64,000 bases of DNA from an uncultured Anaeroplasma sp. (GCA_947592005.1 CANQDJ010000001.1:11035-75034), one strand, 5' to 3'; shown: positions 19,961 to 51,667, counted from the first letter of the stretch. The notes: generated from the sequence alone by a model not told the origin. A program made the numbers and translations.

Positions 19961-20085
19961 ATTTTATAAAATAGAAAAAATTTTCTATAAAATTGTCATA
20001 AATTGTTGTACGAAAAAAAGGACTTGTTTTGTCGAAGGTATTTTTTTTAATATTAGATTCCTTTATAATTTCAAATGGTGATGCT

Positions 20086-20439
20086 ATGGGATTGAATGTG
20101 GGAGTATATGTGAAAAAGAATACCCTTATATTGCGGTTAAAGGGTGAATTGGACGATGTTACGGTTACAGATTTACGAACAAGGATCAGTCGATATATTG
20201 ATGATTACAAGATTAAGCATTTGGTGATCAATGTGGAGAAATTGGAGTTTATGGATTCTTCGGGAATTGGGTTTATTATCGGTCGTTATCACCAATTAAA
20301 GCGAGTTGGTGGAGATGTGGTTTTATGTAATATTCATCAAAAGATTGAAAGAATTGTCCAATTATCCGGATTAAATAAAATATGTTTGATTCAGGAGAAT
20401 GAAGAATCTATTTTAATGGGAATAGGGGGAAGAAATTAA
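20086..20439 (+). CDS. spoIIAA: Anti-sigma-F factor antagonist SpoIIAA (STAS)
   Basis: LRLKGELD and EFMDSSGIG phosphoacceptor motif; start re-placed at ATG 20086. Confidence 0.9.
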   Translation: MGLNVGVYVKKNTLILRLKGELDDVTVTDLRTRISRYIDDYKIKHLVINVEKLEFMDSSGIGFIIGRYHQLKRVGGDVVLCNIHQKIERIVQLSGLNKICLIQENEESILMGIGGRN

Positions 20440-20855
20440 TGGAAAATGAAGTACGATTAACGTTTTTATCAAAGCGATGTAATATTGCGGTGATCCGAAA
20501 TATGTTGGGAGCGATGTTGGTGGATAATAATCCTACCATTACGTTTATCAATGAATTAAAAACAGTTGTCAGTGAAGCAATAACGAATGCGATTGTTCAT
20601 GGGTATGATAATAAAGAAGATAAGTATATCGAAATGAATGTTTTCTTGTATGCGGATTGTGTTAAAATCGATATTATCGATAAAGGTTGTGGAATTGAAG
20701 ATGTGGCTCTAGCCAGAGAGGCTTTATATTCTACGAAAGCCGATGAAGAACGAAGTGGATTGGGATTTACGATTATGGAAATGTTCAGCGACAGTTTGAT
20801 TGTTGAGAGTAAAAAAGGAGAAGGAACGTACTTACATTTAGAGAAGAATTGGTAG
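20439..20855 (+). CDS. spoIIAB: Anti-sigma-F factor/kinase SpoIIAB
   Basis: ELKTVVSEAITNAIVHGY, DKGCGI, ERSGLGFTIME, GEGT GHKL motifs. Confidence 0.92.
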   Translation: MENEVRLTFLSKRCNIAVIRNMLGAMLVDNNPTITFINELKTVVSEAITNAIVHGYDNKEDKYIEMNVFLYADCVKIDIIDKGCGIEDVALAREALYSTKADEERSGLGFTIMEMFSDSLIVESKKGEGTYLHLEKNW

Positions 20856-20884
20856 TATAAAATTTTCTATAAATAGGCATAATA
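20855..20884 (+). promoter_or_regulatory. Sigma-G-type promoter of spoVA
   Basis: GTATA-N18-CATAATA matches GHATA-N18-CATAHTA. Confidence 0.6.
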
Positions 20885-20899
20885 GAATTAGGTGATATT

Positions 20900-21343
20900 A
20901 TGCAAAATACAACGAAATATTATGAAAGTCTTGTAAAAACACAACGAAATTATAAACAGATGACGATAAGTTTTTTACAAGCCTTTTTCTTTGGTGGTTT
21001 ATTATGTCTTTTCGGACAAGTTATTTTAACTATATTGAATTTGTTTTTTTCGCCGAATGAATCGAATTTTTATCTTTTGATAATCATTATTTCTCTTGCC
21101 GCAATTTTATCTGCAGTGGGTATATATGACGATATGGGACAAATTGCCAAATGTGGGCTTGCCATACCAATTTCCGGTTTTTCCAATGCATGTGTCAGTG
21201 CGGCAATGGAATATAAAAAAGAAGGGCTTGTTTTGGGAATAGGGAGTAATTGTTTGAAACTTGCGGGTAGTGTTATTGTATTGGGGACTTGTAGTGCGAT
21301 TATTGTTTCTTCCATAAGATATATTATAGAGGTTTTAATATGA
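20900..21343 (+). CDS. spoVAC: Stage V sporulation protein AC
   Basis: AFFFGGLLCLFGQ, GLAIPISGFSNA, KLAGSVIV. Confidence 0.9.
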   Translation: MQNTTKYYESLVKTQRNYKQMTISFLQAFFFGGLLCLFGQVILTILNLFFSPNESNFYLLIIIISLAAILSAVGIYDDMGQIAKCGLAIPISGFSNACVSAAMEYKKEGLVLGIGSNCLKLAGSVIVLGTCSAIIVSSIRYIIEVLI

Positions 21344-22317: not shown

Positions 22318-22664
22318 TTTTTCTTTGTGCTTTTATGATTGGTGGCGGAATATGTGCACTCGGTGAACTCATAAAGTGTCTGCTTAAATGGACTACAGGA
22401 CATATAACGGTTTTGTTCGTATCACTAGGAACATTGTTGGATTTTAATCATTTTTATGAAAAATTGATTGATATCGGCGGGGCAGGAGCACTTTTGCCGA
22501 TCACCAGTTTTGGTCATTCTTTGGCTCATGCAAGTTTTGAGAAGGCTCAACAAGTGGGATTTATAGGTATTTTTACGGGTATGTTTGATAAGACGTCCGG
22601 TGGAATCGCCTTTACTATATTTATAGCGGTTATAATTGCTTTGTTATTTAAACCGAAATCTTAA
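22314..22664 (+). CDS. spoVAE: Stage V sporulation protein AE (SpoVAEb)
   Basis: AFMIGGGIC, GGAGALLPITSFGHSL, LLFKPKS; ATGA overlap with spoVAD. Confidence 0.9.
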   Translation: MIFLCAFMIGGGICALGELIKCLLKWTTGHITVLFVSLGTLLDFNHFYEKLIDIGGAGALLPITSFGHSLAHASFEKAQQVGFIGIFTGMFDKTSGGIAFTIFIAVIIALLFKPKS

Positions 22665-22670
22665 ATGGAA

Positions 22671-22696
22671 AATCTCCGCTTTGTCGGAGTTTTTTT
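22671..22696 (+). terminator. Terminator of the spoVA operon
   Basis: CTCCG/CGGAG stem followed by T7. Confidence 0.7.
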
Positions 22697-22715
22697 ATTT
22701 TATAAAAATTATAGT

Positions 22716-22735
22716 AAAAAAGAAGACAATTATAA
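22716..22735 (+). repeat. Left 20-bp direct repeat of the island
   Basis: AAAAAAGAAGACAATTATAA, identical to 34964-34983. Confidence 0.8.
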
Positions 22736-22771
22736 TTCCTTAATTTTTTTAGAACGTTAAATCTAGATACG

Positions 22772-22793
22772 GGATTGTGGAGTTCCACAGTCC
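22772..22793. repeat. Short hairpin of the GG(A)CTGTG/CACAG(T)CC family
   Basis: GGATTGTGG-agtt-CCACAGTCC. Confidence 0.45.
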
Positions 22794-23361
22794 ATATTTT
22801 ACATAAAAATGGGTATTTATTACAAGATACTACAATTTTCTTGACAAATATCTTTAATTTCACTTAAAATCAAAATGAATTATGAAAAAAATGACGATTG
22901 AAAAAATAATTCCTTTGACAAAACTAGGAAACAGGAATGTACAAATATGCTTAGGTAAAAATGCATAGATGTAACATCTAATGAGAAGCAAAGTATGGTT
23001 TAGAACAAGTAGCAAACCAAAGGAATCAAGATGCAAAATGAATTTCTTTCATTTCTATTTTATAAAAATATGAAAGAGTTTATATTTTTACTTATCAAGT
23101 GTATTTAACTTAAATAAATCAAATTTGATAGTAATAAAAAATATTGATATTTCAAAAAAGGATTCATTTATGAATTATTAAAACAATTTCAGTAAATTCA
23201 AGGGAATTAAAAGAAATTTGTTCAAAGTTTGAAGCCTTTTTAGAAAATTAGTAAATAGAAAAAGTAATTGAACTATTACCTAGCGTATAAAAAACTTATC
23301 AAAGATGATTTTCAAATCATTTATAAAAAAACTTAATTCTTGTGTAGAGGGAGGTATAAAT

Positions 23362-24549
23362 ATGGCAGTTGCAGAAGTTATTAAGTTTGAGGGCCCGCAA
23401 GATGCCCTAGTGTGGAAAAATGGTGGTAGAGAATATATGATTAGTGGGAATGAGAAATTTAATGCTCTTTCTCAATTAATTGTTGAAGAATTCCATGAAG
23501 CGATTTTATTTTCTAATGGTATGGCATTGGATTTATTTAAGGCAGGACGCTATACATTATCTACCCAGAATATTCCTATGCTATCTAAAATGTATGAGAA
23601 CATAGTAGATGGATCACCATTTCCTTGTAAAGTTTACTTTATCAATAAAGTTCATCAATTAGAATTGAAATGGGGTACACAAGGAGGAATCACTTTAAAT
23701 GATCCGATTTATGACATTTTTCTTCATGTTGGTTGTTGTGGGACTATGGCAGTTAGAATCTCTGACTCAAGGAAATTTTTATTAAAATTTGTAGGAAATA
23801 AAGATGTTTTTGAAAATAAGGATCTTTTAATGAATTTAAGAGGTATTATTTCTTCCAATGTAAAAAATTTCATATCAAAAATAATGATTCAAGGTAAAGT
23901 AAGCTTTTTTGATATGAATGCTCATATCTTTGATATTGGGCAACTTGTTGCTAAAGTTTTAGGAACAATTTTTGATGGATATGGATTATCTATCGAACAA
24001 TTTAATATTGAAACCATTGACGTACCAAAAGAAGATTATGAAGAAATTAATAAGGCAAAGAGTTTAAATACATCTCGTAAGATCCAAGGATTTACATGGC
24101 AAGAAGAGCAAATGAATAAGATTTTAGATGATGCTGCTAAAAATGAAGGTGCCGGTAATATGATGGGAACTGGTATGGGTATTGGAATGGGATTTGGTAT
24201 GGGTGCCCCTATGGGACAAGCCTTTGGAAATATGGGCAATTCCATTTTTGGAGAAACAAAAATTAACTCAGGGAAAGATTCTAATCAAACTTCCAAGCCA
24301 ACTCAAATCAATAATAATGGTGGAGAAAATTTAAATATTAATAACTTCTTTAATGCCGGTGCTAAAGATCAATCTAATGATCAATCGACTACTATTTGTC
24401 CTTCATGTGGAGCAAAATTAGCAAATGGTGTTGCATTCTGTTCATTCTGTGGAGCGAAGCAACAGTTAACTGCTGTTTGTCCAACATGCCATGCTCAAGT
24501 AGAAGGTTCAGCTATGTTCTGTTCATTTTGTGGTACTAAATTAAAATAA
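23362..24549 (+). CDS. SPFH/Band-7 domain protein with C-terminal double zinc ribbon (YdjI-like)
   Basis: SQLIVEEFHEAILF, FPCKVYFINK and KWGT motifs; GMGIGMGFGMG; four CxxC pairs (CPSC, CSFC, CPTC, CSFC); GGAGG RBS before ATG 23362. Confidence 0.85.
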   Translation: MAVAEVIKFEGPQDALVWKNGGREYMISGNEKFNALSQLIVEEFHEAILFSNGMALDLFKAGRYTLSTQNIPMLSKMYENIVDGSPFPCKVYFINKVHQLELKWGTQGGITLNDPIYDIFLHVGCCGTMAVRISDSRKFLLKFVGNKDVFENKDLLMNLRGIISSNVKNFISKIMIQGKVSFFDMNAHIFDIGQLVAKVLGTIFDGYGLSIEQFNIETIDVPKEDYEEINKAKSLNTSRKIQGFTWQEEQMNKILDDAAKNEGAGNMMGTGMGIGMGFGMGAPMGQAFGNMGNSIFGETKINSGKDSNQTSKPTQINNNGGENLNINNFFNAGAKDQSNDQSTTICPSCGAKLANGVAFCSFCGAKQQLTAVCPTCHAQVEGSAMFCSFCGTKLK

Positions 24550-24564
24550 GGTGGGAATGAAAAT

Positions 24565-25296
24565 ATGAAAATGAGTACAAGAAAGTATAATTATATTGGG
24601 TTAATTATCGCCTATAGCATTTTATTTGTGTTATTTAACGTTTTAATATTTGTAATTTTTAAGCCTTGGAATTTTGAAAAAACTGCTTGTATAGCAGCAT
24701 TTTGGTGGTCATATGCATTTTTTACTATAGCATTTTTAGCTCAATTAAGTTCTCTATTTGTAATTGATAGAAAAAAAGAAATTACGGCTGTTTTCATGGG
24801 AATTCCATTATTTTATATTTCTATTGGATATTTCCTAGCTGCAACATTTGTATCGGCTTTATTTATGGTATTGGCTTCATTTAAAGTGGAAACACCGCTA
24901 GAACTTGTTATCGTATTGCAAATTGTCTTATTGGGGCTTTACTTAGTAGCATTTATTTTAGCTTTGTTAACTAAGCGAACAATTAGTGATATAGGCGAAC
25001 ATCAAAAAGAAAATGTTGCTCATATTCGTATAATGGTTGATAAAGTTGAGTTGTGTGCTGAAATGATAGAGGATCAAAGTACTAAAAAGAGCATAATGGA
25101 ATTTGCAGAAAATATAAGATACTCTGATCCAATGAGTACAAAAGTAGTAGAAAATTTAGATAAAAAATTGAATTTGCTTATTGATGAATTAAAGTCTGCT
25201 ACATTACTAAAAGACTTAGATAAGATACAACTTTTATTAAGAGAAGGGAACCTTACTTTATTAGAAAGAAATAAGATGATTGTAAGTAATAAATAA
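24565..25296 (+). CDS. Hypothetical multi-TM protein with cytoplasmic helical tail
   Basis: About five hydrophobic helices, then a helical domain containing IRYSDPMS. Confidence 0.8.
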   Translation: MKMSTRKYNYIGLIIAYSILFVLFNVLIFVIFKPWNFEKTACIAAFWWSYAFFTIAFLAQLSSLFVIDRKKEITAVFMGIPLFYISIGYFLAATFVSALFMVLASFKVETPLELVIVLQIVLLGLYLVAFILALLTKRTISDIGEHQKENVAHIRIMVDKVELCAEMIEDQSTKKSIMEFAENIRYSDPMSTKVVENLDKKLNLLIDELKSATLLKDLDKIQLLLREGNLTLLERNKMIVSNK

Positions 25297-25308
25297 GGGG
25301 GGACTTTT

Positions 25309-27303
25309 ATGGCAATTAAACTATCAACCCATAGATGTGTGGATTGCTTTGGCAAGTTAGAGTTTAATAAAATACAAAAAGTATTTGAATGCCCATATTG
25401 TGGAAGAGTTTATGAAAAAGATATGCAATTTGAAAAAATTCAAATTGATGGATTGGCTGGAATAAATGATACTGCTCGTGCAGTTTTATTAGATATTGCC
25501 AATCAAAATTTTGATAGTGCATGCAAAAATTTAGATGAATGTGAAAAACTAAATCACAATTATATCGGGACATGGATTGCAAATATTTGCTACTACCTCT
25601 TTATGGCCAGTGCTAATAAATCCGATGCAAAGGTATATGTTGCCAAATCAAAATATTATTTAGATCAGATCAAAGAAGAGCGTTCGAATGTTGAAGAAGA
25701 TGAAAAAAATTTTTATGATGTTTTGACACAGCCTGAAATCTATGCAGTAGTTTATGCAACCTTTCTAAATGTAGGATTATTAGAAAGAGCATCTTATATT
25801 GCAAATTTCTTAGAATTTGATAAAATTTTAAATTCTAATTTAAATAAAATATTACTGAACATCTGCTTAAAAGCAAATGCATTTTCAGAAGTTGATCAAA
25901 TTGTGTCTAATATAGATTTTATTGATAAGCGATATACTTTGTATGAAGTACTCAAACATTATCCGGATACAGAGCAAAAAATAAGTAATATTAAACATTT
26001 ATTTGAAGCAAATGCATTTACCTACAAAGATACATCGCTTGTTAAAAAATATATAGAAGAAACAAATGATTCGTCTATAACAAAATTAGAAGTAATGGTA
26101 CAAGCATTTCAATTAAAAATGGATATAGATATATCTGAAATTATTGACAATATTCTTGATGAAAAATGTGATGATAAATTAGTGGAAAGAACATTCTCAG
26201 CTATTAAAAATGTTAAACTATCGGAAACAGATGCATATAAACTACTAGACTATTGTATGAGTGATCAATGTACAAGTTGTAAAGTTGCAAAGGCAGGTAT
26301 CGACACTTTAAAGGCAAACGGGAGTATATACGAGATACGTGCACAAAGTATAATAAACCTATTCAACTATTCAAAGTTAAATATTGAAGAAAAGAATGAA
26401 CTTGTAAGCCAAATATTTCAGAATTTTAGAGTCAGTCAAAAAGGCATGGATCTATTGAGTAACTTTTTGCTTCTTGCATATGAAGATGATGAGGAAAATA
26501 GATATAAAGTTATATGTCCTATTTTGGAAAAAAGTACTTCTATAACTCTAAATACAATGACAGATTATTTAATAGGAAAAAATAAAGATGGTAATTTTAA
26601 AATAGACATTTCTAAATTGATTTTTAGTTTGAAAATAAATGAGGTATATTTTAAAGGATTACTATCAAATTATCTTTTGAATACAACAGACTCTATTCAT
26701 GTGGTTTTTGAGATTATAAAGGAATTAGCCGCCAAGAAATGTGATATAAATCAAGAAGCATTAAAAGTTTTAATTGTAAAATATGATCTTAGTTCGGATA
26801 TGCTCACATTTGTGTTTAATATGAATATTCAAGTATCAAATGATCTTTTAGAAATTTATTTAAAAAAAGCAATTTCTAATGGAACACTTAATGCTAATGT
26901 AATCGCAAAGTTACTAAATTACAAAACTAACATATCAAATAAAACGATTTCTGATTTTATATTAAAAGTAAAAGATAATCAGATTAAAACTAATTTCATA
27001 GGAAAACTTATTCAGAATTGTTCTGACCTGCGATTTGCATCTTCCTATACATGCTCTTATTTAGGCCATAGTATTGTTTGCAATTTTATACAAAATTATT
27101 TTTTTACTTCAGTTGACGAGCCAAGTACCCGTTTCATCATTTGTAAAGAACTTATGAATTATAAAATTAAGCTCTCAGATGATATTTTAGTAGATAAAAA
27201 GAAAAAATCATTTAAAAAATACATTTTAGAAAATAAATCTAACTTATCAACTGAGGTGGTTGATTTATGTGATTCTTTAGGTGTATTTAAAATGTTTTTT
27301 TAA
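25309..27303 (+). CDS. Zn-ribbon plus alpha-helical repeat protein
   Basis: N-terminal CVDC...CPYC ribbon; recurring L..YL....D....K..I..L units. Confidence 0.75.
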   Translation: MAIKLSTHRCVDCFGKLEFNKIQKVFECPYCGRVYEKDMQFEKIQIDGLAGINDTARAVLLDIANQNFDSACKNLDECEKLNHNYIGTWIANICYYLFMASANKSDAKVYVAKSKYYLDQIKEERSNVEEDEKNFYDVLTQPEIYAVVYATFLNVGLLERASYIANFLEFDKILNSNLNKILLNICLKANAFSEVDQIVSNIDFIDKRYTLYEVLKHYPDTEQKISNIKHLFEANAFTYKDTSLVKKYIEETNDSSITKLEVMVQAFQLKMDIDISEIIDNILDEKCDDKLVERTFSAIKNVKLSETDAYKLLDYCMSDQCTSCKVAKAGIDTLKANGSIYEIRAQSIINLFNYSKLNIEEKNELVSQIFQNFRVSQKGMDLLSNFLLLAYEDDEENRYKVICPILEKSTSITLNTMTDYLIGKNKDGNFKIDISKLIFSLKINEVYFKGLLSNYLLNTTDSIHVVFEIIKELAAKKCDINQEALKVLIVKYDLSSDMLTFVFNMNIQVSNDLLEIYLKKAISNGTLNANVIAKLLNYKTNISNKTISDFILKVKDNQIKTNFIGKLIQNCSDLRFASSYTCSYLGHSIVCNFIQNYFFTSVDEPSTRFIICKELMNYKIKLSDDILVDKKKKSFKKYILENKSNLSTEVVDLCDSLGVFKMFF

Positions 27304-27322
27304 GAAAGAGAGATGATAAGGA

Positions 27323-29119
27323 ATGACAGAAGAAGAATATAGAAGAGAACAAGAAGAACGAGAACAGTTAATTAATCAGTATAATTCTTTAGTAGAAAAA
27401 TATAATCAACTTGTTGTTTATGCAGAACAGATTGAAGCAGAATTAAATACTGCTCAAGCAAATACAATAACTATTATTAGTAACGCAAAAGCAATGGCAA
27501 CACATGTGCTTCCTCGCTTGGATAATTCTATTACAATGGCAGATGAAGTACAAAATTTAACTTATGATGTTATGAAGGCTATAGAGGATTTGAAGAATAG
27601 ATATTTTAAAATTAAAAATGTCAGCACCTCTTCTAAAAAATTAACAGAATTAGATGATCTTTATAACCGTTTGTATCGTTTTTATAATAAACTTCGCAAA
27701 ATTTCATTAGCATATGTTATTGGAGTTGATTCAAATATTATAAGCAATGAAACACTTAGAGTTGAAGTTGAAAAACAGCAATTAATGAATAGTGATTATT
27801 GGTTATCATATGCCTTGTCTGCTGTAATGCTGTGGATAAATGATGAAAAAAAGGCATCTACACGAGCAGTTGAGAAAGCATTAGAAATGGACGAATATAA
27901 AACGTCTTTATATTTCATGCTAATCAACTTACGTTTTGGTCGAACAACTGCTGCCCAAAAATGGTATGAAGTATTTTCTAAAGGGGTAGATATTTTCAAT
28001 ATTCGTCCCGAATGGGAATTTATTTTACAAGCATATTTACATCATGGTTTTGGTTATGACAAAGAATTTGAGCGAAGGGTTAAAAAGCAATTTACAGATC
28101 TTTTGGAGGAAATGCGAAAATCTTTTGCTAGATATGAAAGTAAGGTTATAGAAAAAGTAACAGAATATGGCTTTGCCTTCCCGTATTCAACAGCCAAGAC
28201 ATATTCATATCTACAACTATATTGTAAAGATTATGGTTTATTACTAGAATTGCTAACTTGTGCTGAAAAAAATGGAGAATTAGCAAAATGGTATGCTAGT
28301 ATTTATGAACAAGATGATACCTCTGCAGATACCTTAAAAGAAAACATTGAGAATGTTTTATATGATCTTGTATCAGAATATGATTCAAAAGAATATGAAA
28401 TAATTAAGCAAATTAAATATCACGAATATGTTATAAAATCAAAAGGTGATATTGCTATGGCAAATCGTATGGTTAATATGCAAAATGCTGAATCCGAAGA
28501 GAAAATCACATTAGATGAATTAATGTTTAATTTTGCTTTTGCAGATCCAAATGATAAAGTAGATAATAGATTACAAAAATTTGCTTTATCGTTTATGATT
28601 GATTTAATTAAAAAGGGGTTTGCAGAATATCAAATAAAATATCGAGATAAGGAAAAAGAAAAATATACATTTTATATAGATGGGTGTACTTTTACAGGAA
28701 ATGATTTAACTATAGATGAATCTCGTAAAGCAATTGCAGATTATTATAAAGCTAACAAAAGAAAACTTCTTTTTGCAGATAAAAAATATACAGGCTTATT
28801 ATGGGCTTCTATCGGTTTTACTGCTTTAACCATTTTGATGACGGTGATTATTATTTTGATGAAGAGATTTGTTACTGCTACAACAATTATATTTGCTATA
28901 TCAGTAGTTTTAACAATATTATTTTGGATTTTATGGGCATTACGCCGACAATCACGTACAAAAAACATTCAAAAGAGAATGCTTGAATCGCTTGAAAAAT
29001 TAAATAAAGTAAATGAGGATTTTATTCAATGGAAAAAAGATTATCAAAATTCAGATGTAGAACAAAACGGCTTGCAAGAAACACTAAACAATTATAAATG
29101 GGAGGAAGAACATGAGTAA
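27323..29119 (+). CDS. Coiled-coil/TPR-like/2TM protein, paralog 1
   Basis: DYWLSYAL..W...KTSLYFMLINLRFGR motif; two C-terminal TM helices. Confidence 0.8.
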   Translation: MTEEEYRREQEEREQLINQYNSLVEKYNQLVVYAEQIEAELNTAQANTITIISNAKAMATHVLPRLDNSITMADEVQNLTYDVMKAIEDLKNRYFKIKNVSTSSKKLTELDDLYNRLYRFYNKLRKISLAYVIGVDSNIISNETLRVEVEKQQLMNSDYWLSYALSAVMLWINDEKKASTRAVEKALEMDEYKTSLYFMLINLRFGRTTAAQKWYEVFSKGVDIFNIRPEWEFILQAYLHHGFGYDKEFERRVKKQFTDLLEEMRKSFARYESKVIEKVTEYGFAFPYSTAKTYSYLQLYCKDYGLLLELLTCAEKNGELAKWYASIYEQDDTSADTLKENIENVLYDLVSEYDSKEYEIIKQIKYHEYVIKSKGDIAMANRMVNMQNAESEEKITLDELMFNFAFADPNDKVDNRLQKFALSFMIDLIKKGFAEYQIKYRDKEKEKYTFYIDGCTFTGNDLTIDESRKAIADYYKANKRKLLFADKKYTGLLWASIGFTALTILMTVIIILMKRFVTATTIIFAISVVLTILFWILWALRRQSRTKNIQKRMLESLEKLNKVNEDFIQWKKDYQNSDVEQNGLQETLNNYKWEEEHE

Positions 29120-30746
29120 TACAAATCAAATCTTAAATGAATTGAATGCTACAGTTGGTGGTTTTACTGCTTCAGTAGATGTTAAAGTTTCAAAAGTAAA
29201 TGAGATAACTGATCAAATAAGAAAAAATGCTGATACAACATTTCAAGAAATTAATAATTTTAAGCAAAGTATGATTGAAAATGAGCAGATGCAAAGTGCT
29301 CAAGAAAACATATTGAGATTAAACCAAATTATTAGAGAAAGATTTTCTGATTATGATAGTATTAGAAAAACAGTAATGGGTGTAGTAAAAGATTTTGATA
29401 TCGATCTTGTTAGAAATAAGACCATTACCGAATTATCTGAAGAATTATGGATGACAAGTTCTAGATATTGGTTATCTTATACCTTAATAGCCATCAGTGC
29501 TTGGGCAAGTGATAATAAAGGGGTTGCTAAAAATGCAGTGTCCGAATCGTATAGAGCAGATAAAATAAAAACATCATTATTCTTTTGCTTAATGAATTTA
29601 CGATTTAATCGTGTTGATGTTGCAAGAGAGTGGCTATGTGAATATTTCAACTCTATTATTCCAGAAGATATCAAAGATGAAACGGCCATTTTGCTTCAAT
29701 CTTATATTAATGGATTGTTTGGAATAGATAAAGAAATCGAATATGTCGTTAAGGACGTGGTTGATAGTTGGATTGAAGCCATAAATATCGTTGATGAAAA
29801 TAATGAAAAGTTATCTGCAATGTTTTTAGAATACATTCAAAACATTCCACCTAAAATTGATTTTAAGTCCGAGTACTTAAAACAATATTGTAAAGCTTAT
29901 CCAAATATGGGTTTTCCATATGGTGAGGCAAAGAAGTATGATGTTTTAATAAAAAAAATAAAATCATTAGATGTAGAAAATATTATTCAAAATGCTGCTG
30001 ATTATAAAGCAAGAGTAGATGCTGTTTTAAGAGATTTAATTACAAATTATGATGCTGAAGAATTGGAGTTGAAGCAACAACAGGAATATTATAATTTAGT
30101 CATTGAAAACAAAGGAAAAGAAGAAATAGCCGAACAACAATTTAATGCAATATTAGAAAAAAGATCTTCCAAACAAAACATTGGAGAAAAATGTGTTGAA
30201 TGGGCACTTTATTCAAAAAGTGATTCTATTAATATACATGTTCAAAAATTTGGTTTTCAAAATACAAAAAATTGGTTTTTATCAGCTATAAATACGTGGT
30301 CAAATGAGTTCGAAAAAGAATTTCCAGATGAATATCCAATTCAAGTGGAAGAATGGGAATGTGTATCTAATGGAGATGATTTAGAGGAACAAGAAATTAG
30401 TTTAAGAGCATATTTAGAGAAAAATAAATTTAAGATAAAATATGTTAATAAACCAAATATTATCTCTCTCATATTATTTGTAATTCTACTTACAGTTAGT
30501 ATTTTTGTAAAAGTGAAATTTGATGCACCAACTCCTGTATTTTTAGGAATTCTTGGAGGCTCTCTATTATTCCTTTTGATATTAGCTATTAGAATATTTA
30601 CAGCTTCCTCTAGATTTAATAAGAAAGTTAAATATTTGCTTTCTTTGTTAACAGGTACGATGAGTGAGTTAACTGAATATCGTAAAACGTATGCAGAAAA
30701 TAAAGATAAAAAAGCTGAACTTTTTGCTTTAATAGAACAATTATAA
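29112..30746 (+). CDS. Coiled-coil/TPR-like/2TM protein, paralog 2
   Basis: RYWLSYTL..W...KTSLFFCLMNLRFNR motif; two C-terminal TM helices. Confidence 0.8.
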   Translation: MSNTNQILNELNATVGGFTASVDVKVSKVNEITDQIRKNADTTFQEINNFKQSMIENEQMQSAQENILRLNQIIRERFSDYDSIRKTVMGVVKDFDIDLVRNKTITELSEELWMTSSRYWLSYTLIAISAWASDNKGVAKNAVSESYRADKIKTSLFFCLMNLRFNRVDVAREWLCEYFNSIIPEDIKDETAILLQSYINGLFGIDKEIEYVVKDVVDSWIEAINIVDENNEKLSAMFLEYIQNIPPKIDFKSEYLKQYCKAYPNMGFPYGEAKKYDVLIKKIKSLDVENIIQNAADYKARVDAVLRDLITNYDAEELELKQQQEYYNLVIENKGKEEIAEQQFNAILEKRSSKQNIGEKCVEWALYSKSDSINIHVQKFGFQNTKNWFLSAINTWSNEFEKEFPDEYPIQVEEWECVSNGDDLEEQEISLRAYLEKNKFKIKYVNKPNIISLILFVILLTVSIFVKVKFDAPTPVFLGILGGSLLFLLILAIRIFTASSRFNKKVKYLLSLLTGTMSELTEYRKTYAENKDKKAELFALIEQL

Positions 30747-30790
30747 TATAGAATTCAGGGAAAAATTTTAGTAAGAATAAGGAGAAAAAT

Positions 30791-30997
30791 ATGGAAAAGA
30801 ATGAAAAAAGCGTAAATGCTACAGAAAATGCTACAGAAAATGTTACAGAAAATGCTACAGAAACTGAAAACTTTTTAGATAGTTTTAATAGTGATGAGGA
30901 AGAAATTATGGATTTATCTACTGAAAAACTAGATGAATTAAATAAGAAACTTCCAAATTGGAGTATTGAACCACCTCATAAATTTCTTAATAAATAA
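30791..30997 (+). CDS. Small acidic protein with NATE tandem repeats
   Basis: AAGGAG RBS; stop/start overlap (TAATG) with the next ORF. Confidence 0.7.
   Translation: MEKNEKSVNATENATENVTENATETENFLDSFNSDEEEIMDLSTEKLDELNKKLPNWSIEPPHKFLNK
30815..30862 (+). repeat. 12-bp tandem repeat, four copies
   Basis: AATGCTACAGAA x2, AATGTTACAGAA, AATGCTACAGAA. Confidence 0.9.
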
Positions 30998-31491
30998 TGA
31001 GAAAAAAGGAAGGTCAAATCAATTATTATAGTGATTGGCTTAAGATATTTAATAAAATAAAATCTACTGGTAATTTCTCTGATTTCTATTTAGACATGGT
31101 GGTTGGGAATCTAAGAGATGTTCAATTCAGTTATAATAATTTTTGTAAAGAATTAGTTAATTTTATTAATTTTATTTTAAATTACTATATTAAAAAGATG
31201 AATGAAAGAATTAATTTTTATATATCTCAAACAAATTTAAACTCTATTGTATATTCCATCGATTATTTTTTCTTGCAAATAAAGAAAATCAAATTTTATG
31301 AGTGTTTACAATTTTTAAAAAAAGAGTTTAAGGTAGAATTGACTTTAGAGATAGATAAAACTATTGATAACTATCTAAAGCAATTAGAGAATTATATTTA
31401 TTCTTCATCTATGAACAATTCTTTTTTTACAGAATTACTTTATATTATTAAAAAAAATAAAGGGATGGTTTTTAATGGCGTGTTATCTTGA
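30997..31491 (+). CDS. Hypothetical protein (164 aa)
   Basis: Overlaps both neighbouring genes (translational coupling); no motif recognised. Confidence 0.65.
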   Translation: MRKKEGQINYYSDWLKIFNKIKSTGNFSDFYLDMVVGNLRDVQFSYNNFCKELVNFINFILNYYIKKMNERINFYISQTNLNSIVYSIDYFFLQIKKIKFYECLQFLKKEFKVELTLEIDKTIDNYLKQLENYIYSSSMNNSFFTELLYIIKKNKGMVFNGVLS

Positions 31492-32974
31492 GGTTTTAAA
31501 AGAAATAGAAATTTACCTTTATGCACGAACACCTTTGATTATTTTAAAAAGTGGAGAAAGAGATCGTGTAGAAAGATTATTAGGTGAAGTGAGTAGGAAT
31601 ATAAAACATGATATATATGGATACAGTTCCATTAGACAATTATATAAAATGAATTCTTTATCAACAATTTGTTCTACAGAAGAGCCTTTACAATATATTT
31701 CTCATGCATTTAAGAAAAAAAGAGGTGAAATATATTCTTTGATAGATTTTGGTTATTTAGAAAATGATAATCTTTATAGTAGAGATATTTTAAATTTAAT
31801 TTATACGGCAAGAGAAAATGAAGGAACTCTCATTCTTGTTTCAGATGATTTGATATGGAATAGAATTAGTAATTTAGGCTTGATATGTAATTTAAATTAT
31901 CCTTCTCAAAAAGAACGTATTGAGCAAATCGAAGCCTTCGTTGAAAAATACAAGAAACTTTATAAAAGTTGTTGGACTAAAGAAGAAATAATATTAGCTT
32001 CTACTGTATTAAAAGGATTTTCTGAAATTCAAATAGAGAATATACTTTCTGCCAATTTAATTAAAAAAAATGGATTTTATAAAGAAGATATTTTACTTTT
32101 GGCCAATCAAAAACAATTAATTTATGGAAATATATCTAATTTGAAACAAATTATTATAGATAAAAATATTGAATTGTATGGATTAGAAAACTTTAAAAAA
32201 AGAATGGATGAAAAAAAGAAAGTTTTCTTTGCAGATGAAAAATTGCTAGAAAAATATAACATTACATATCCTAAAGGAGTATTATTAACAGGTATTCCTG
32301 GCTGTGGGAAATCTTTATCAGCAAAATATATTGCTGCCAAATGGAATTTACAGTTGTTTAAATTCGACATTGATACAATTTTTAATAAATATGTGGGCGA
32401 GAGTGAACGAAAAATGCAGGAGGCACTCGCTTATGCAGATCGTATGGCACCATGTATTCTTTGGATAGATGAAATAGAAAAGGCATTATCAATTTCTTCT
32501 GATGGAAATGACACAGGGAAAAGGATTATGGGGCAATTCTTGTTTTGGCTTCAAGAATCTAAAAGTAGGGTATTCTTAATTGCAACGGCAAACGATATTT
32601 CAAAATTACCTCCGGAACTCTTTAGAAAAGGAAGATTTTCAGAAATATTTTTTATTGATTTGCCTAATGAGGTTGAAAGAAAAGAATCTTTAAAATATTA
32701 TATTCAAAAATCTCTGCATATGGATTTGAATGAAAATGAAATGACACAACTTTTAGACATTACAAATGGATTTAGTTATGCGGATTTAGAAAGTTCCATA
32801 AAAGAAATAGCCCAATCATTTATTATTAATGAGGAATTCAATTTGGATTTCAATTTAATTAAAAACAAACTACTAGAAGTTATTCCATATGAAAGAACTA
32901 ATCCTGACACTGTAAAAAAAAGTAGACAATGGGGAAAAGAAAGAGCAACATTAGCCTCTTTAGAAAGGAATTAA
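31475..32974 (+). CDS. Ycf46-like classical-clade AAA ATPase
   Basis: Walker A GIPGCGKS, pore loop KYVGESE, Walker B ILWIDEIEK, SRH TANDISKLPPELFRKGRF; degenerate N-terminal module. Confidence 0.92.
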   Translation: MACYLEVLKEIEIYLYARTPLIILKSGERDRVERLLGEVSRNIKHDIYGYSSIRQLYKMNSLSTICSTEEPLQYISHAFKKKRGEIYSLIDFGYLENDNLYSRDILNLIYTARENEGTLILVSDDLIWNRISNLGLICNLNYPSQKERIEQIEAFVEKYKKLYKSCWTKEEIILASTVLKGFSEIQIENILSANLIKKNGFYKEDILLLANQKQLIYGNISNLKQIIIDKNIELYGLENFKKRMDEKKKVFFADEKLLEKYNITYPKGVLLTGIPGCGKSLSAKYIAAKWNLQLFKFDIDTIFNKYVGESERKMQEALAYADRMAPCILWIDEIEKALSISSDGNDTGKRIMGQFLFWLQESKSRVFLIATANDISKLPPELFRKGRFSEIFFIDLPNEVERKESLKYYIQKSLHMDLNENEMTQLLDITNGFSYADLESSIKEIAQSFIINEEFNLDFNLIKNKLLEVIPYERTNPDTVKKSRQWGKERATLASLERN

Positions 32975-32975
32975 A

Positions 32976-34769
32976 ATGGCAAATGAAGATATAAAAAGTA
33001 AGATAAATGAAATGAATCATGCAATCAGTCGTATTCAAAGTGAAATTGCTATAATTGAAGATGAACTGAATGCTATTTCTCAAAGTGCGTATGCAAATAA
33101 GAATTTGTTGATTGCATCTAGTGCTCTAGTTAATAACTCTATGGAAAACAACAGCAATGTCTTAGTATATTCTAATAATATGATAAGACAAACTTATGAT
33201 GCTCAATTACAAATTAAAGAGTTATTCTTTATTTTTAAAGATATAGAAACTGCAAATAAGAAAATTAGGGCTTTAAATAATAAATTATTCTATGAGTTTA
33301 AAAATCAATCTAAGGTTAGAAAAATAGTTACTGGTTTTTTAGATAATTTAAACCTTGATTTGGTTGATAATGAAAGAATTTATAAGGCCATAGAAAAGGA
33401 ACATCTTCAAACTCCTGATTTTTGGCTAACTTATGTTCTTTTAGCAATTATGGCTTGGAAGCAAGAGGATAGAAAACAGGTTGAAAAATGTATGAATGGA
33501 GCCTTAACTTTAAATAAGAAATCGACTACCGTTTTCATGATGTATTTTAATTTGATAATAGGAAGAGTTGAACCTGCATTAAAGTGGTTTAGTCTTTATA
33601 AGGAAATGGAAAAAGTTGGAAAAGATGATAAAACATTATTAATGTTAGTTTGTTCAATTTCTAATAAAATTAATCAAATAGAAGAAACTACAGATGTTAT
33701 GACAAAAGAAATTTTGAATTATATTCAATCTGAAGTTTCTAAAGGTATGGAGGAAGTAAATCAAGCTGAAGTAGTAAGCAATATTGAAAAATATTTAGAA
33801 TCTTTTGATTTAAAAGAAACAATGGCTTATGATAATTATCGTAAATATGTTAAAGATTATCAAGATATGGCAGATGCTTTATCTTTAGCTAAAAATAATG
33901 CTGAAATTTTAGATTATTTTGACGAACTATCACATGTTCTTTTAAATGAAAGAAATACATATTTAGATGAATATATTCAAGAGGTAATAAATGAACCTTG
34001 TGAAGGCGAAAAAGACATTGTCGAAGAGATTGCTTATAATGAGGAAATTATAAAAACAGTTAACATTATAAAAGAAAGAAATGGTTTAGTAACTACTAAC
34101 TCTTTTAAAGAGTTAGCTAAAGAAAAATTCGAAAAGAAAAAGATACATGATGAGGTTACCTTAAATTCATTTTTAGAAATTTATAATTGGACTTATGGAG
34201 GAAAAAATTTAAAGATAACTACTCTTGCTAAATGGAATTTATTTGTTTTAAATAAACCTTTTACAGTTGCTGCATATGAGCAATATTGTCAAAAGTATCA
34301 ATCATTAAATCATAAGACCCATCAAATTTCGATTGGAGATTTTTCATGCAAAACAGAATTTAAGAATCAAGAAAAGGATATTGAAAATGTAAATACATAT
34401 ATTAATGATAGAAAGCAATATCTTTTAAAGAAGGCAATAAAGCCTATGTTCTATGTTGGTATAGGACTTGCAATATTATGTTTGGTATTAATGATAATGT
34501 GTCTTACAATGATAAAATCAGTTCAGACTAAAAATATTCTCTCAATTTTAAGTGGTGTTGGCATAGGTGTATTTGCTTTAGTGGCTGTTTGGGCCTATGT
34601 AAAAAATATATTTAAAAAGAAAAATATCGTAAATAAAATGTCAAATGAACAAGCAAAAATTAAAGATATTGTTATTCATCTTTATGAAGAAAAGGCTGAT
34701 TATGATAGGGAATTCCTCCAAGCTGATGATATATCAAATCAAATAAAAGCATTTTTTGAAACATTTTGA
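32976..34769 (+). CDS. Coiled-coil/TPR-like/2TM protein, paralog 3
   Basis: DFWLTYVL..W...STTVFMMYFNLIIGR motif; two C-terminal TM helices. Confidence 0.8.
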   Translation: MANEDIKSKINEMNHAISRIQSEIAIIEDELNAISQSAYANKNLLIASSALVNNSMENNSNVLVYSNNMIRQTYDAQLQIKELFFIFKDIETANKKIRALNNKLFYEFKNQSKVRKIVTGFLDNLNLDLVDNERIYKAIEKEHLQTPDFWLTYVLLAIMAWKQEDRKQVEKCMNGALTLNKKSTTVFMMYFNLIIGRVEPALKWFSLYKEMEKVGKDDKTLLMLVCSISNKINQIEETTDVMTKEILNYIQSEVSKGMEEVNQAEVVSNIEKYLESFDLKETMAYDNYRKYVKDYQDMADALSLAKNNAEILDYFDELSHVLLNERNTYLDEYIQEVINEPCEGEKDIVEEIAYNEEIIKTVNIIKERNGLVTTNSFKELAKEKFEKKKIHDEVTLNSFLEIYNWTYGGKNLKITTLAKWNLFVLNKPFTVAAYEQYCQKYQSLNHKTHQISIGDFSCKTEFKNQEKDIENVNTYINDRKQYLLKKAIKPMFYVGIGLAILCLVLMIMCLTMIKSVQTKNILSILSGVGIGVFALVAVWAYVKNIFKKKNIVNKMSNEQAKIKDIVIHLYEEKADYDREFLQADDISNQIKAFFETF

Positions 34770-34916
34770 TAGTGCTATTTAATAGAAATATCCCTAATTA
34801 TTTTTTGACTTTAGAAATTATAAAAGGATAATTGTTAAGGATATTTTTCCAATCTGTAGGAATTCATAAAAAATGGAGAAATCAATCTTCTTCCATTAAA
34901 TACTATAACTTACTTA

Positions 34917-34943
34917 CAATCTCGCATAAAGCGGGATTGTTTT
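34917..34943 (+). terminator. Terminator at the island right end
   Basis: CAATCTCGC-ataaa-GCGGGATTG followed by TTTT. Confidence 0.65.
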
Positions 34944-34963
34944 GACGCTTTAAAATATAGGAA

Positions 34964-34983
34964 AAAAAAGAAGACAATTATAA
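34964..34983 (+). repeat. Right 20-bp direct repeat of the island
   Basis: Identical to 22716-22735; contains the probable -35 (AAGACA) of the downstream promoter, 17 nt from TG-n-TAAAAT. Confidence 0.8.
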
Positions 34984-35038
34984 AAAAATATGTTAAAATT
35001 AAATAAATAAGGAAAAAGTATAAAAATTGGAGGTATAT

Positions 35039-35767
35039 ATGAATAATATAAAAGACGATGAATTGGATAAATTTCTTGAATCAATCAATAAAACTACAGT
35101 TACTGCTAGTATTGATGAAGAAACGTTATATAAGGTGGCTTGTTCATGTGTGGAATCCGATATGGTTTCTATAAATAGTATTCAAAAAGAATTTCTTTTT
35201 GGATTTAGTCGAGCTAATGCAATTGTAGATGAATTGGAGAGAAGAGGAATTATTTCTAAGAAAAATTCACAAACTGGTAAAAGAAAAGTTTTAGTAAATC
35301 AAGAAGAATTAGACAAAATGTTTTTAGAAAAAAAGGAAGATTTCTTTTTTGATAATGATGAATGTTTTTTGAAAAATATAAGTTCGGAGAACAGAGAAAT
35401 ATTAAAAAAATATAACTTAATGAAGCCACTTCGTGAAATGTTGAAAAATCAAAGTACCTTTTCTCTTGATGAGGTAGATTATGAGGAGGAGTTAGAATTC
35501 GGAACAATCTTTGGGTATATATATGGTACGTTTACTTTTAATGAACCTCTTACACTCGAAAGATTGGAATTGGCAAAAGGAAATATCAATTGTATTATGA
35601 GTGTGAATGCTTGTTCAACTTTTCCGGCTTCCGAAGTAAACAATTTAATAAGTAAAGTAAGGAATTTGGCAGAGCTAGATGACCTTATATGTGGTATTGA
35701 AATAGATGATAGTTTGAAAGATGGAGAATTTAAAATTTTGGCATTATTTGTATATTTTCCGTTTTAG
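35039..35767 (+). CDS. FtsK gamma domain fused to an FtsZ C-terminal-like domain
   Basis: VSINSIQKEFLFGFSRANAIVDELERRGIIS matches the FtsK gamma winged helix; SLDEVDY and IMSVNA...EV...ICGIEIDDSLKDGEFKI match the FtsZ T7 loop and C-domain. Confidence 0.7.
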   Translation: MNNIKDDELDKFLESINKTTVTASIDEETLYKVACSCVESDMVSINSIQKEFLFGFSRANAIVDELERRGIISKKNSQTGKRKVLVNQEELDKMFLEKKEDFFFDNDECFLKNISSENREILKKYNLMKPLREMLKNQSTFSLDEVDYEEELEFGTIFGYIYGTFTFNEPLTLERLELAKGNINCIMSVNACSTFPASEVNNLISKVRNLAELDDLICGIEIDDSLKDGEFKILALFVYFPF

Positions 35768-35885
35768 TTTAAATAGTTAAAAAATGAAGGTTTTCTTCAT
35801 TTTTTATATTTTTTATTCGATATTTTTATTGTTTTCTATGTATTTGATAAGAATAATGATATAATAAAATATAAGGTGATGAAAG

Positions 35886-36686
35886 ATGGAAGAAGCAAAG
35901 AAAAAGACAATTTTTTCTCCGAATAAAATAGTGGCGATTATTTTTTATATTCTCAGTATGTTTGTGTTGGGAAGTATAATCACTATTATAATCGGTATCT
36001 TGTTGGCGATGTTTCACGATGATAATGTAGGATTGGTCATTGAAAGTTTTACGACATTGGATTTATCGGAATACAGCGATTCTATACGAAAAATTAATGC
36101 GATGGCTCAAGGTTGGGGTAATTTCATTGTTTATTTATTGTGTTTTGTAGTGGTTGTATTTTATATGCGAGATGAAGTGATAAAGGATTTTAAGGATTTG
36201 GTTGGTAGAAAAGAAAAACATATGGTATGGATTCCTCTTTTTACTTTGTTGTTTATGATTGTTACTTATGCGGTTGAAATATTGATTGGATATTTTGTTC
36301 GGTCTTCCGCCAATCAGGAAACCATTGAAACGATTATTCAAGACGGTGGTATGATTCCTATGATTATTGCGACAGTATTGTTCGCACCGGTAGTAGAAGA
36401 GTTGATTTATCGAAAGGCTATATTTTCTTATTTTAAGAAATATAGTATAGGGGCTTGTTATTTGATTTCGACTGTGTTTTTTATGTTACCGCATATGATT
36501 TCCAGTGATTTTGGCGATATCCGCATTTGGGTATTACAAGCGATTCCTTATTTGGTTAGTGGCCTATTATTGTGTGTGGTTTATCATAAGTCGCAAGAAA
36601 ATGTGTTTGCGTCTATTATTGTTCATTTTGTTAATAATTTTATAGCGTCTTTATTGATAATTACGGAAATGAATATGGGGGTATAA
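35886..36686 (+). CDS. CPBP (CAAX/Abi) intramembrane metalloprotease
   Basis: APVVEELIYR, FMLPH, SIIVHFVNN. Confidence 0.9.
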   Translation: MEEAKKKTIFSPNKIVAIIFYILSMFVLGSIITIIIGILLAMFHDDNVGLVIESFTTLDLSEYSDSIRKINAMAQGWGNFIVYLLCFVVVVFYMRDEVIKDFKDLVGRKEKHMVWIPLFTLLFMIVTYAVEILIGYFVRSSANQETIETIIQDGGMIPMIIATVLFAPVVEELIYRKAIFSYFKKYSIGACYLISTVFFMLPHMISSDFGDIRIWVLQAIPYLVSGLLLCVVYHKSQENVFASIIVHFVNNFIASLLIITEMNMGV

Positions 36687-51543: not shown

Positions 51544-51645
51544 ACTACACTCTCCTTTTCAATTTGAATTTTAGGATATATTATAGATATTTGTCAAGTG
51601 AATTGTAATATATTGTAAAAAACACCCATTTTTATGTAAAAATGT

Positions 51646-51667
51646 GGACTGTGAAAGTCCACAGTCC
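51646..51667. repeat. Short hairpin of the GGACTGTG/CACAGTCC family
   Basis: GGACTGTG-aaagtc-CACAGTCC. Confidence 0.6.

Follow-up and report, generated by a model that had tools for sequence, protein, structure and literature searches.

A foreign nine-gene SPFH/AAA+ operon framed by a genome-unique 20-bp repeat in an uncultured Anaeroplasma species

The DNA described here is a window of 64,000 nucleotides (nt) from an uncultured Anaeroplasma sp. (GCA_947592005.1, CANQDJ010000001.1:11035-75034), and the window means this whole stretch, with positions counted from its first letter. Between two exact copies of the 20-mer AAAAAAGAAGACAATTATAA, at 22716-22735 and 34964-34983, lie nine co-directional, tightly packed genes (i1-i9), and directly to the right of the second copy stands a gene for a protein with an FtsK-gamma domain. 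All ten genes are of foreign origin. The reading that we prefer, with moderate confidence, is that this is a horizontally acquired island, now fixed in the species, and that the repeat of 20 base pairs (bp) is a one-off scar left when the operon was spliced into the promoter of the FtsK-gamma gene.

The repeat and its two junctions

The features at and around the two repeat copies are as follows, with fold energies and z-scores in brackets and protein lengths in amino acids (aa).

22668..22696, + strand: intrinsic terminator of spoVAE, from the terminator scan, with a core hairpin at 22674-22689 and T7 (-8.1 kcal/mol, z -2.9)
22716..22735, + strand: left repeat copy, with the -35-like AAGACA and without a fitting -10 17 nt downstream; kept in the conspecific contigs L047 and L048
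22736..22747, + strand: left inner-edge 12-mer TTCCTTAATTTT, an imperfect inverted repeat of 34952-34963
22761..22879, + strand: copy of a host terminator-promoter module, 119 nt, beginning 25 nt inside the left repeat copy, 84-86% identical to 51558-51667(-)
23149..23217, + strand: upstream sequence native to the operon, 75% identical (blastn, 69 nt) to the region 5' of the SPFH gene in a Bacilli metagenome-assembled genome (L055)
34916..34940, + strand: hairpin after i9, a weak terminator, followed by TTTT (-13.9 kcal/mol, z -4.7)
34952..34963, + strand: right inner-edge 12-mer AAAATATAGGAA, the inverted partner of 22736-22747
34964..34983, + strand: right repeat copy, forming the -35 and A-tract of the candidate promoter AAGACA-17-TGTTAAAAT (34971-34999); kept in L043 and L049
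35039..35767, + strand: FtsK-gamma gene, 242 aa, with an N-terminal FtsK-gamma winged helix, directly right of the right repeat copy
35778..35806, + strand: terminator of the FtsK-gamma gene (-10.5 kcal/mol, z -5.6), with the native Rce1 promoter (-10 GATATAAT) ~55 nt later
51558..51667, - strand: host paralogue of the module, comprising the terminator of a 322-aa gene and the promoter of a yccF-like gene for a 118-aa membrane protein

The two copies lie on the + strand and are identical at 20/20 positions, as the initial annotation of this DNA had described. No third match occurs in the window at up to 2 mismatches, against a chance expectation of 0.01, and two matches were obtained in 0 of 100 shuffles. 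A scan of the whole 1.49-Mb assembly, which is 97% complete, returned the same two copies only at up to 1 mismatch. The longest exact match between both 1.5-kb flanks is of 20 nt; composition-matched shuffles reach at most 14 nt, which excludes chance for a repeat of this length. A coincidence of two 20-mers in AT-rich intergenic DNA is accordingly highly improbable, even though the sequence is A/T-rich and has 33 unrelated exact occurrences in very large public collections, for the two copies also occupy equivalent positions, each standing 20-25 nt past a terminator hairpin with a transcription unit downstream. The repeat is non-random and genome-unique.

The 33 outside occurrences (29 in JGI metagenomes and 4 in IMG/VR) have unrelated flanks without blastn similarity to the window and are chance matches. 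The proposal that AAAAAAGAAGACAATTATAA is an att core common to a family of elements was for this reason rejected, and neither collection yielded a related attB, attP or sister element carrying the 20-mer.

Similarity between the two junctions extends outward from the repeat, as had been claimed, and is real but weak: over 30 nt upstream of both copies, aligned without gaps, 17/30 positions are identical (empirical P ~0.005 against the intergenic DNA of this genome). The resemblance of the two copies breaks off abruptly at the 3' (inner) edge. A hairpin does precede each copy, which upholds that part of the annotation; the left one, CTCCGCTTTGTCGGAG followed by U7, is a terminator, but the right one, at 34916-34940, has only U4, fails the tail rule and was not called by the terminator scan. 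The right copy also supplies the -35 of the promoter previously assigned to the gene at 35039: a match to the consensus alone, AAGACA-17-TGnTAAAAT at 34971-34999, 40 nt upstream of the FtsK-gamma start codon. This promoter is complete at the right copy only, the left copy having no -10 at the proper distance. Among strains of the species, differences directly adjoin the 20-mer at both copies and none falls within it.

Directly inside the repeats the two edges form a short imperfect inverted match. The left inner edge TTCCTTAATTTT matches TTCCTATATTTT, the reverse complement of 34952-34963, at 10/12 positions, and the empirical probability of at least 10/12 at this fixed position is 5e-4, with random intergenic 12-mers of this genome as the null. 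The layout is therefore that of a duplication, an inverted end, the cargo, an inverted end and a duplication, a geometry that would fit a target or att duplication.

The repeat may also be unrelated to any insertion, as a duplicated regulatory piece (a -35/UP element or an operator) that the FtsK-gamma protein, a predicted DNA-binding winged helix-turn-helix (wHTH) protein, might bind at both sites and thus couple the two units. A modest probability is given to this explanation, which would account for the position of both copies past a hairpin and before a transcription unit, for the overlap of the right copy with the -35 of the gene for that wHTH protein, and for strain differences that adjoin the 20-mer without entering it; moreover, the same 5' region has demonstrably received the copy of another regulatory module (110 nt). 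However, 105 nt separate the left copy from the operon's -35 downstream, this copy has no -10, the genome contains no third copy, even with mismatches, beyond chance, and no motif similar to AAAAAAGAAGACAATTATAA occurs upstream of distant FtsK-gamma homologues. The FtsK-gamma gene is never found with the operon in 83 other loci, and strain divergence (0.3-1.1%) is too low to reveal constraint.

The nine-gene operon and the extent of the foreign DNA

The genes between the repeats, all on the + strand, are listed below; searches of the ten open reading frames (ORFs), the FtsK-gamma gene included, against Pfam, NCBIfam and PADLOC gave no match to a model of an integrase, transposase or relaxase, in agreement with the earlier statement that the island has no mobility gene.

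23305..24549, + strand: i1, 414 aa, SPFH protein (Band_7_1, YdjI-like) with a Gly/Met-rich linker and a C-terminal double zinc ribbon
24565..25296, + strand: i2, 243-aa transmembrane protein whose position is kept in homologous operons
25309..27303, + strand: i3, 664 aa, N-terminal CxxC...CxxC zinc ribbon, no family match
27323..29119, + strand: i4, 598 aa, paralogue 1; its helical core stands between an N-terminal coiled coil and a transmembrane hairpin at the C-terminus
29112..30746, + strand: i5, 544 aa, paralogue 2
30791..30997, + strand: i6, 68-aa acidic protein with N-terminal NATE repeats
30997..31491, + strand: i7, 164 aa, no family match
31475..32974, + strand: i8, 499-aa classic-clade AAA+ ATPase with a P-loop-less N-terminal domain
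32976..34769, + strand: i9, 597 aa, paralogue 3, with 96 homologues

The SPFH protein i1 matches PF13421 (7.8e-37), PF13240 (3.6e-13) and DZR in Pfam, and i8 matches Pfam AAA (1.4e-30), PADLOC IetA (3.8e-33), an NCBIfam model and VAT/p97 in the PDB (5.5e-49), resembling Cdc48/VAT/PAN/CdvC-like modules. The IetA models provide the only PADLOC matches of the operon; the partner IetS and the other eight proteins gave none, and the operon matches no PADLOC defence system. For i2, no Pfam, NCBIfam or PADLOC match was obtained. The proteins i4, i5 and i9 are paralogues of 544-598 aa that begin with a coiled coil and end in a membrane hairpin: i9 matches i4 of its own genome with an E-value of 1.4e-28, and i4 is collinear in 73/83 loci. 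The AlphaFold2 (AF2) model of the i9 family is all-helical with the C-terminal transmembrane hairpin (pLDDT 85); a Foldseek search against the PDB gave no significant match to a solved structure (best E-value 0.03), and the three paralogues are without family or fold match. A resemblance of i9 to ClyA-type alpha-pore-forming toxins was considered and dismissed as helical-bundle noise (E >= 0.05, TM < 0.3). The NATE repeats of i6 are encoded by the 12-nt tandem repeat AAATGCTACAGA at 30814-30861, of which another strain has one unit fewer (64 aa). None of the island proteins matches PspA_IM30 or Snf7 at E <= 0.01.

This operon is a rarity in its host's family and widespread elsewhere. It is present in 1/106 genomes of the host's family, as a single copy in the host genome, and the gene order i1-i9 recurs in 83 loci from ~80 species of Clostridia, Bacilli and Bifidobacterium, including the cultured Hungatella hathewayi, Pseudoflavonifractor phocaeensis and Bifidobacterium colobi. 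Among these loci, i8 and i9 together are found in 83, i4 and i5 in 73-76, and i1-i3 are detectable in 37-47, always in the same order; a long variant (L083, L126, L063, L062, L090, L068) has three extra genes (~900, 700 and 160 aa) between i3 and i4. The operon thus travels as a unit among Bacillota and Bifidobacterium without a dedicated mobility gene. In the 16 other operon-bearing species with enough flank for comparison, flank-to-flank matches stay at the chance level of 9-16 nt, as in shuffles, and of 24 genomes examined only 1 (G077) has a tyrosine recombinase gene no more than a few kb away. Flanking repeats as a general property of the operon, and its linkage to a tyrosine recombinase, were both rejected on these counts; the repeats are a peculiarity of this species and play no part in the operon's general way of moving.

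Composition marks the same DNA as foreign. The GC content drops from ~0.34 to 0.24-0.29 across 23-36 kb, and GC at third codon positions (GC3) is 0.12-0.22 in the nine island genes, no higher than the 9th percentile among 914 ORFs of the genome, against 0.25-0.35 in the flanking genes. The change in codon style that had been reported between the repeats is therefore genuine, but it does not end at the right one, because the FtsK-gamma gene at 35039-35767 shares it (GC3 0.214, 8th percentile).

On the left the island is preceded by spoIIAA-spoIIAB-spoVAC-AD-AE and on the right it is followed by an Rce1/CPBP protease gene and then by flavin reductase, HAD and M19 dipeptidase genes. In G007, G023 and G018, of the same genus, and in a fourth species represented by more than 24 metagenome contigs (L210-L213), spoVAE directly precedes Rce1 with a gap of 115-185 bp, and the equivalent spoVAE terminator stands directly before the Rce1 promoter, its T-run reaching the -10 box GATATAAT within ~25 nt. 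The same GATATAAT precedes Rce1 in the window, and the motif AATGATATAAT near this promoter is common to the window, G007 and L210. A fifth species (L207) has another gene upstream of Rce1 and neither insert. All five empty sites are without the nine-gene operon, without the FtsK-gamma gene and without AAAAAAGAAGACAATTATAA, and no single-core attB at the same boundaries was found among them, a negative that is weak given the distance of these species.

Since the empty sites also lack the FtsK-gamma gene, whose composition is island-like, the insertion amounts to ~13.15 kb (~22,700-35,850), inserted where ~25 nt separate the spoVAE terminator from the Rce1/CPBP promoter. The spoVAE terminator at 22668..22696 is the last clearly native sequence on the left side, and the right repeat lies inside the foreign DNA, not at its edge, which revises the boundaries of the initial annotation. 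The foreign origin follows from the spoVAE-Rce1 empty sites, from the distribution (1/106 in the family against ~80 species elsewhere) and from GC3. Within the species the island appears to be constant: conspecific metagenome contigs from three other samples, at 99.7% overall identity, carry it in place with both 20-mers intact, and exact-protein look-ups with SPFH, SpoVAD, Rce1-like, i9 and FtsK-gamma for a conspecific empty site gave occupied contigs only.

Several observations concern the flanks themselves. At 20029-21343 the genes run spoIIAA, spoIIAB, spoVAC without an intervening sigF; the order is the same in the G007, G023 and L210 species and is thus a lineage trait. SpoVAD is present in only 14/40 genomes of the genus. 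The repeat end GAATTTGGGATTAACCCCTAAAATGGGGTGTTAA has at least 10 copies in the genome, often at contig ends (C2, C27, C38, C63, C67, C70, C72), and probably belongs to an insertion sequence (IS) or an IS200/605-like element. In the strain of ERZ27249136 (end of L043, start of L050), two ends of this element flank the 114 nt 35761-35874 between the FtsK-gamma gene and Rce1, which suggests an insertion with a long duplication, or strain heterogeneity.

Routes of entry and the recruited host module

Into this setting the preferred reading would place two steps. The FtsK-gamma gene with its promoter, itself foreign, would have been resident at the site first; the 12.2-kb segment 22736-34963 would then have been spliced between the -35 and the -10 of that promoter, duplicating 20 bp of target. 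The FtsK-gamma promoter would still take its -35 from the right copy, and the left one would be a promoter stump. The island would now be fixed and not demonstrably mobile; to lose it would require a rare event, recombination or slippage, across two 20-bp repeats that lie 12.2 kb from each other. Interpretation of the repeat as a scar is argued from its exactness and uniqueness, from the inverted inner edges, from a promoter that is intact at the right copy only, from the lack of mobility genes, and from the lack of flanking repeats in the 16 other operon-bearing species.

The operon itself would be driven by a duplicated piece of host DNA. The segment 22761-22879 is a copy of the module at 51558-51667(-) (blastn 83.6% over 110 nt), and the homology ends just short of the ribosome-binding site of the yccF-like gene. 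The copy includes a hairpin at 22772-22793 (-14.7 kcal/mol) and TTGACA-18-TAAAAT at 22841-22870, which is sigma-70-like with 11/12 matches, the strongest of the region, and probably the promoter of the nine-gene operon. Only 23149-23217, further downstream, resembles the native upstream sequence of a homologous operon, so that, with the host-module copy before it, the 5' region of the island is a patchwork of recruited regulatory pieces. Between the two module copies the hairpin arms differ by changes that preserve pairing (GGATTGTGGAG/TTCCACAGTCC against GGACTGTGGAC/TTTCACAGTCC). At the other end of the island, between i9 and the right repeat, a promoter-like TTGACT-16-GATAAT (10/12) is followed after ~85 nt by the hairpin 34916-34940; the segment 34805-34940 may give rise to a short transcript, has no Rfam match, and an Rfam scan of 22400-36000 returned nothing credible.

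A number of facts weigh against the splicing of the operon into a resident promoter. No genome was found with the FtsK-gamma gene but without the operon, and the two-step order is thus the part reached by reasoning. A target duplication of 20 bp exceeds that of most transposons, and no enzyme for it was identified. A simple target duplication does not predict the similarity of 17/30 upstream of both copies (P ~0.005), and the inner-edge inverted match is a short AT-rich one, which an additional G in other strains weakens. The host-like DNA just inside the left copy means that the inserted segment was already a mosaic or was later remodelled. Finally, the nearest sampled relatives are distant, with SpoVAD at 72-76% and Rce1 at up to 56% identity, 56% being the value of the best Rce1 homologue outside the species.

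The absence of an intermediate state among the genomes found counts in favour of another account, by which the whole 13.15-kb block came in one step from an unsampled donor, through homologous recombination in the flanks or illegitimate insertion, with the repeat already inside it; what the repeat records would then have happened in the donor rather than here. The low GC3 that the FtsK-gamma gene shares with the island, and its absence from all empty sites, are in line with such an arrival. It is nevertheless rather unlikely, for the donor would have to be a fairly close relative in order to carry an 84-86% copy of this genome's module, while 0/105 other genomes of the family have the operon, and elsewhere the FtsK-gamma gene is unlinked to the operon.

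The initial annotation favoured an att-like or target duplication, and of this proposal the foreign DNA, the unique and non-random repeat and the fitting geometry have stood. In its stricter form, the 20-mers would be the cores of functional attL and attR sites, at which a recombinase encoded elsewhere in the genome or by a helper element integrates and excises the island, and excision would restore a single promoter, AAGACA-17-TAAAAT. We consider this unlikely. No integrase is present in or beside the island: PF00589 has no match on contig C1, serine recombinases (PF00239) are absent from the genome, and the five tyrosine recombinases on other contigs, which might be counted in favour of this mechanism together with the exact genome-unique direct repeats around foreign DNA and the imperfect inverted repeats directly inside them, are all Xer-sized (314-332 aa). 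Every conspecific contig found is occupied, the empty sites of other species have neither the 20-mer nor the gene to its right, the operon is without flanking repeats in 16 other species, the 33 matches in JGI metagenomes and IMG/VR are all unrelated, and a copy of a host module lies just inward of the left repeat.

Use of the host's dif site was also considered, prompted by the FtsK-gamma domain beside the repeat, and was rejected: the repeat region reaches at most 15/28 against dif models, and a good host dif candidate, the probable site AGTTATCATAATATATATTATGTAAACC, is located at C28:5352(-), 3 kb from the gene of the best Xer-like tyrosine recombinase (C28:1682-2197). A multi-copy repeat element of this genome as the source of the island ends was discarded as well, since the ends do not resemble it.

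A further variant would make 22736-34963 a non-autonomous cargo element, moved by a trans-acting enzyme that recognises short TTCCT(N2)ATTTT ends and makes a 20-bp target duplication. It is regarded as quite improbable; if true, it would give the widespread SPFH/AAA+ operon, which has no integrase, a way of being mobilised unlike that of any transposon or integrase family described so far.

The cargo and its known counterparts

The second cargo gene encodes a protein with a match to Pfam FtsK_gamma (7.7e-13) and to PDB 2j5p (6e-5) in its N-terminal part. Its C-terminal domain has the fold of the C-terminal (GTPase-activating) subdomain of FtsZ (AF2 pLDDT 78; Foldseek FtsZ E-value 1.9e-5, probability 1.0) and no GTP-binding domain is present. 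The protein is not a recombinase, and its gene is foreign by composition and by its absence from the empty sites of relatives. No close homologue was found in 5.8 billion proteins, among which distant full-length relatives are few. It is a very small family, with few representatives among 1.8 billion, and in a distant homologue of G015 the two domains stand in reverse order.

As a case of mobility the locus is modest: a foreign operon wedged into the gap between a terminator and a promoter, with a short insertion scar and a promoter taken from the host. It exemplifies the way in which an acquired operon that has no promoter may be wired into a small (1.5-Mb) genome. Its main value lies in the cargo, a widespread uncharacterised nine-gene operon in which 7/9 proteins are without family assignment and in which an SPFH scaffold is combined with a Cdc48/Vps4-like unfoldase and with three paralogues that carry a membrane hairpin. 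Its candidate functions are defence and the remodelling or repair of membranes, and the contrast of presence and absence (1/106 family genomes, five empty sites) offers a framework for testing them.

Among known systems, the closest in outline are islands with short direct repeats that are mobilised in trans, such as the ccr-less pseudo-SCC (staphylococcal cassette chromosome) elements and integrase-less islands at att sites. The present locus has in common with them its foreign composition and its cargo operon, the exact direct repeats (15-20 bp) that edge it, the short imperfect inverted repeats just inward of these, and an interior that encodes no recombinase. In contrast to such islands, a cognate recombinase is lacking here (no serine and only Xer-sized tyrosine recombinases), relatives have no conserved attB and no sister elements carry the core, foreign DNA continues beyond the right repeat, and the left inner arm contains host-like DNA.

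Transposon and IS insertions share with this locus the order of duplication, inverted end, cargo, inverted end and duplication, as well as an intergenic site in a promoter region, and IS4/IS1634-type elements make unusually long target-site duplications. The present segment differs from them in having no transposase, a single copy, 12-nt ends with 10 matches that are unlike the multi-copy repeat element of the genome, and an atypical duplication of 20 bp. The integrative mobile elements exploiting Xer (IMEX), such as CTX-phi, TLC and the gonococcal island, use dif and the host XerCD, and the FtsK-gamma domain activates XerD. Like them, the island has no integrase of its own, and an FtsK-gamma-domain protein is encoded beside one repeat; unlike them, its repeat is not dif-like, the genome has its good dif candidate at C28:5352, and the XerD-contact stretch TEKRKA of the E. 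coli protein aligns to VESDMV.

For the operon itself, the nearest counterparts are pspA-ydjGHI of Bacillus subtilis and the archaeal Vps4/SPFH 'adaptin-type' ESCRT-like loci, in which SPFH is found with a Vps4/Cdc48-like AAA+ ATPase (Makarova et al., 2024; PMC10936438). The present operon departs from both in its gene order and partners, in its unmatched paralogues and in having no detected PspA/ESCRT-III member. With both it shares a zinc-ribbon SPFH protein (Band_7_1/YdjI-type) accompanied by membrane proteins, and with the archaeal loci a Cdc48/Vps4-like AAA+ ATPase alongside SPFH, a likeness that suggests, by analogy, a role in membrane remodelling or repair.

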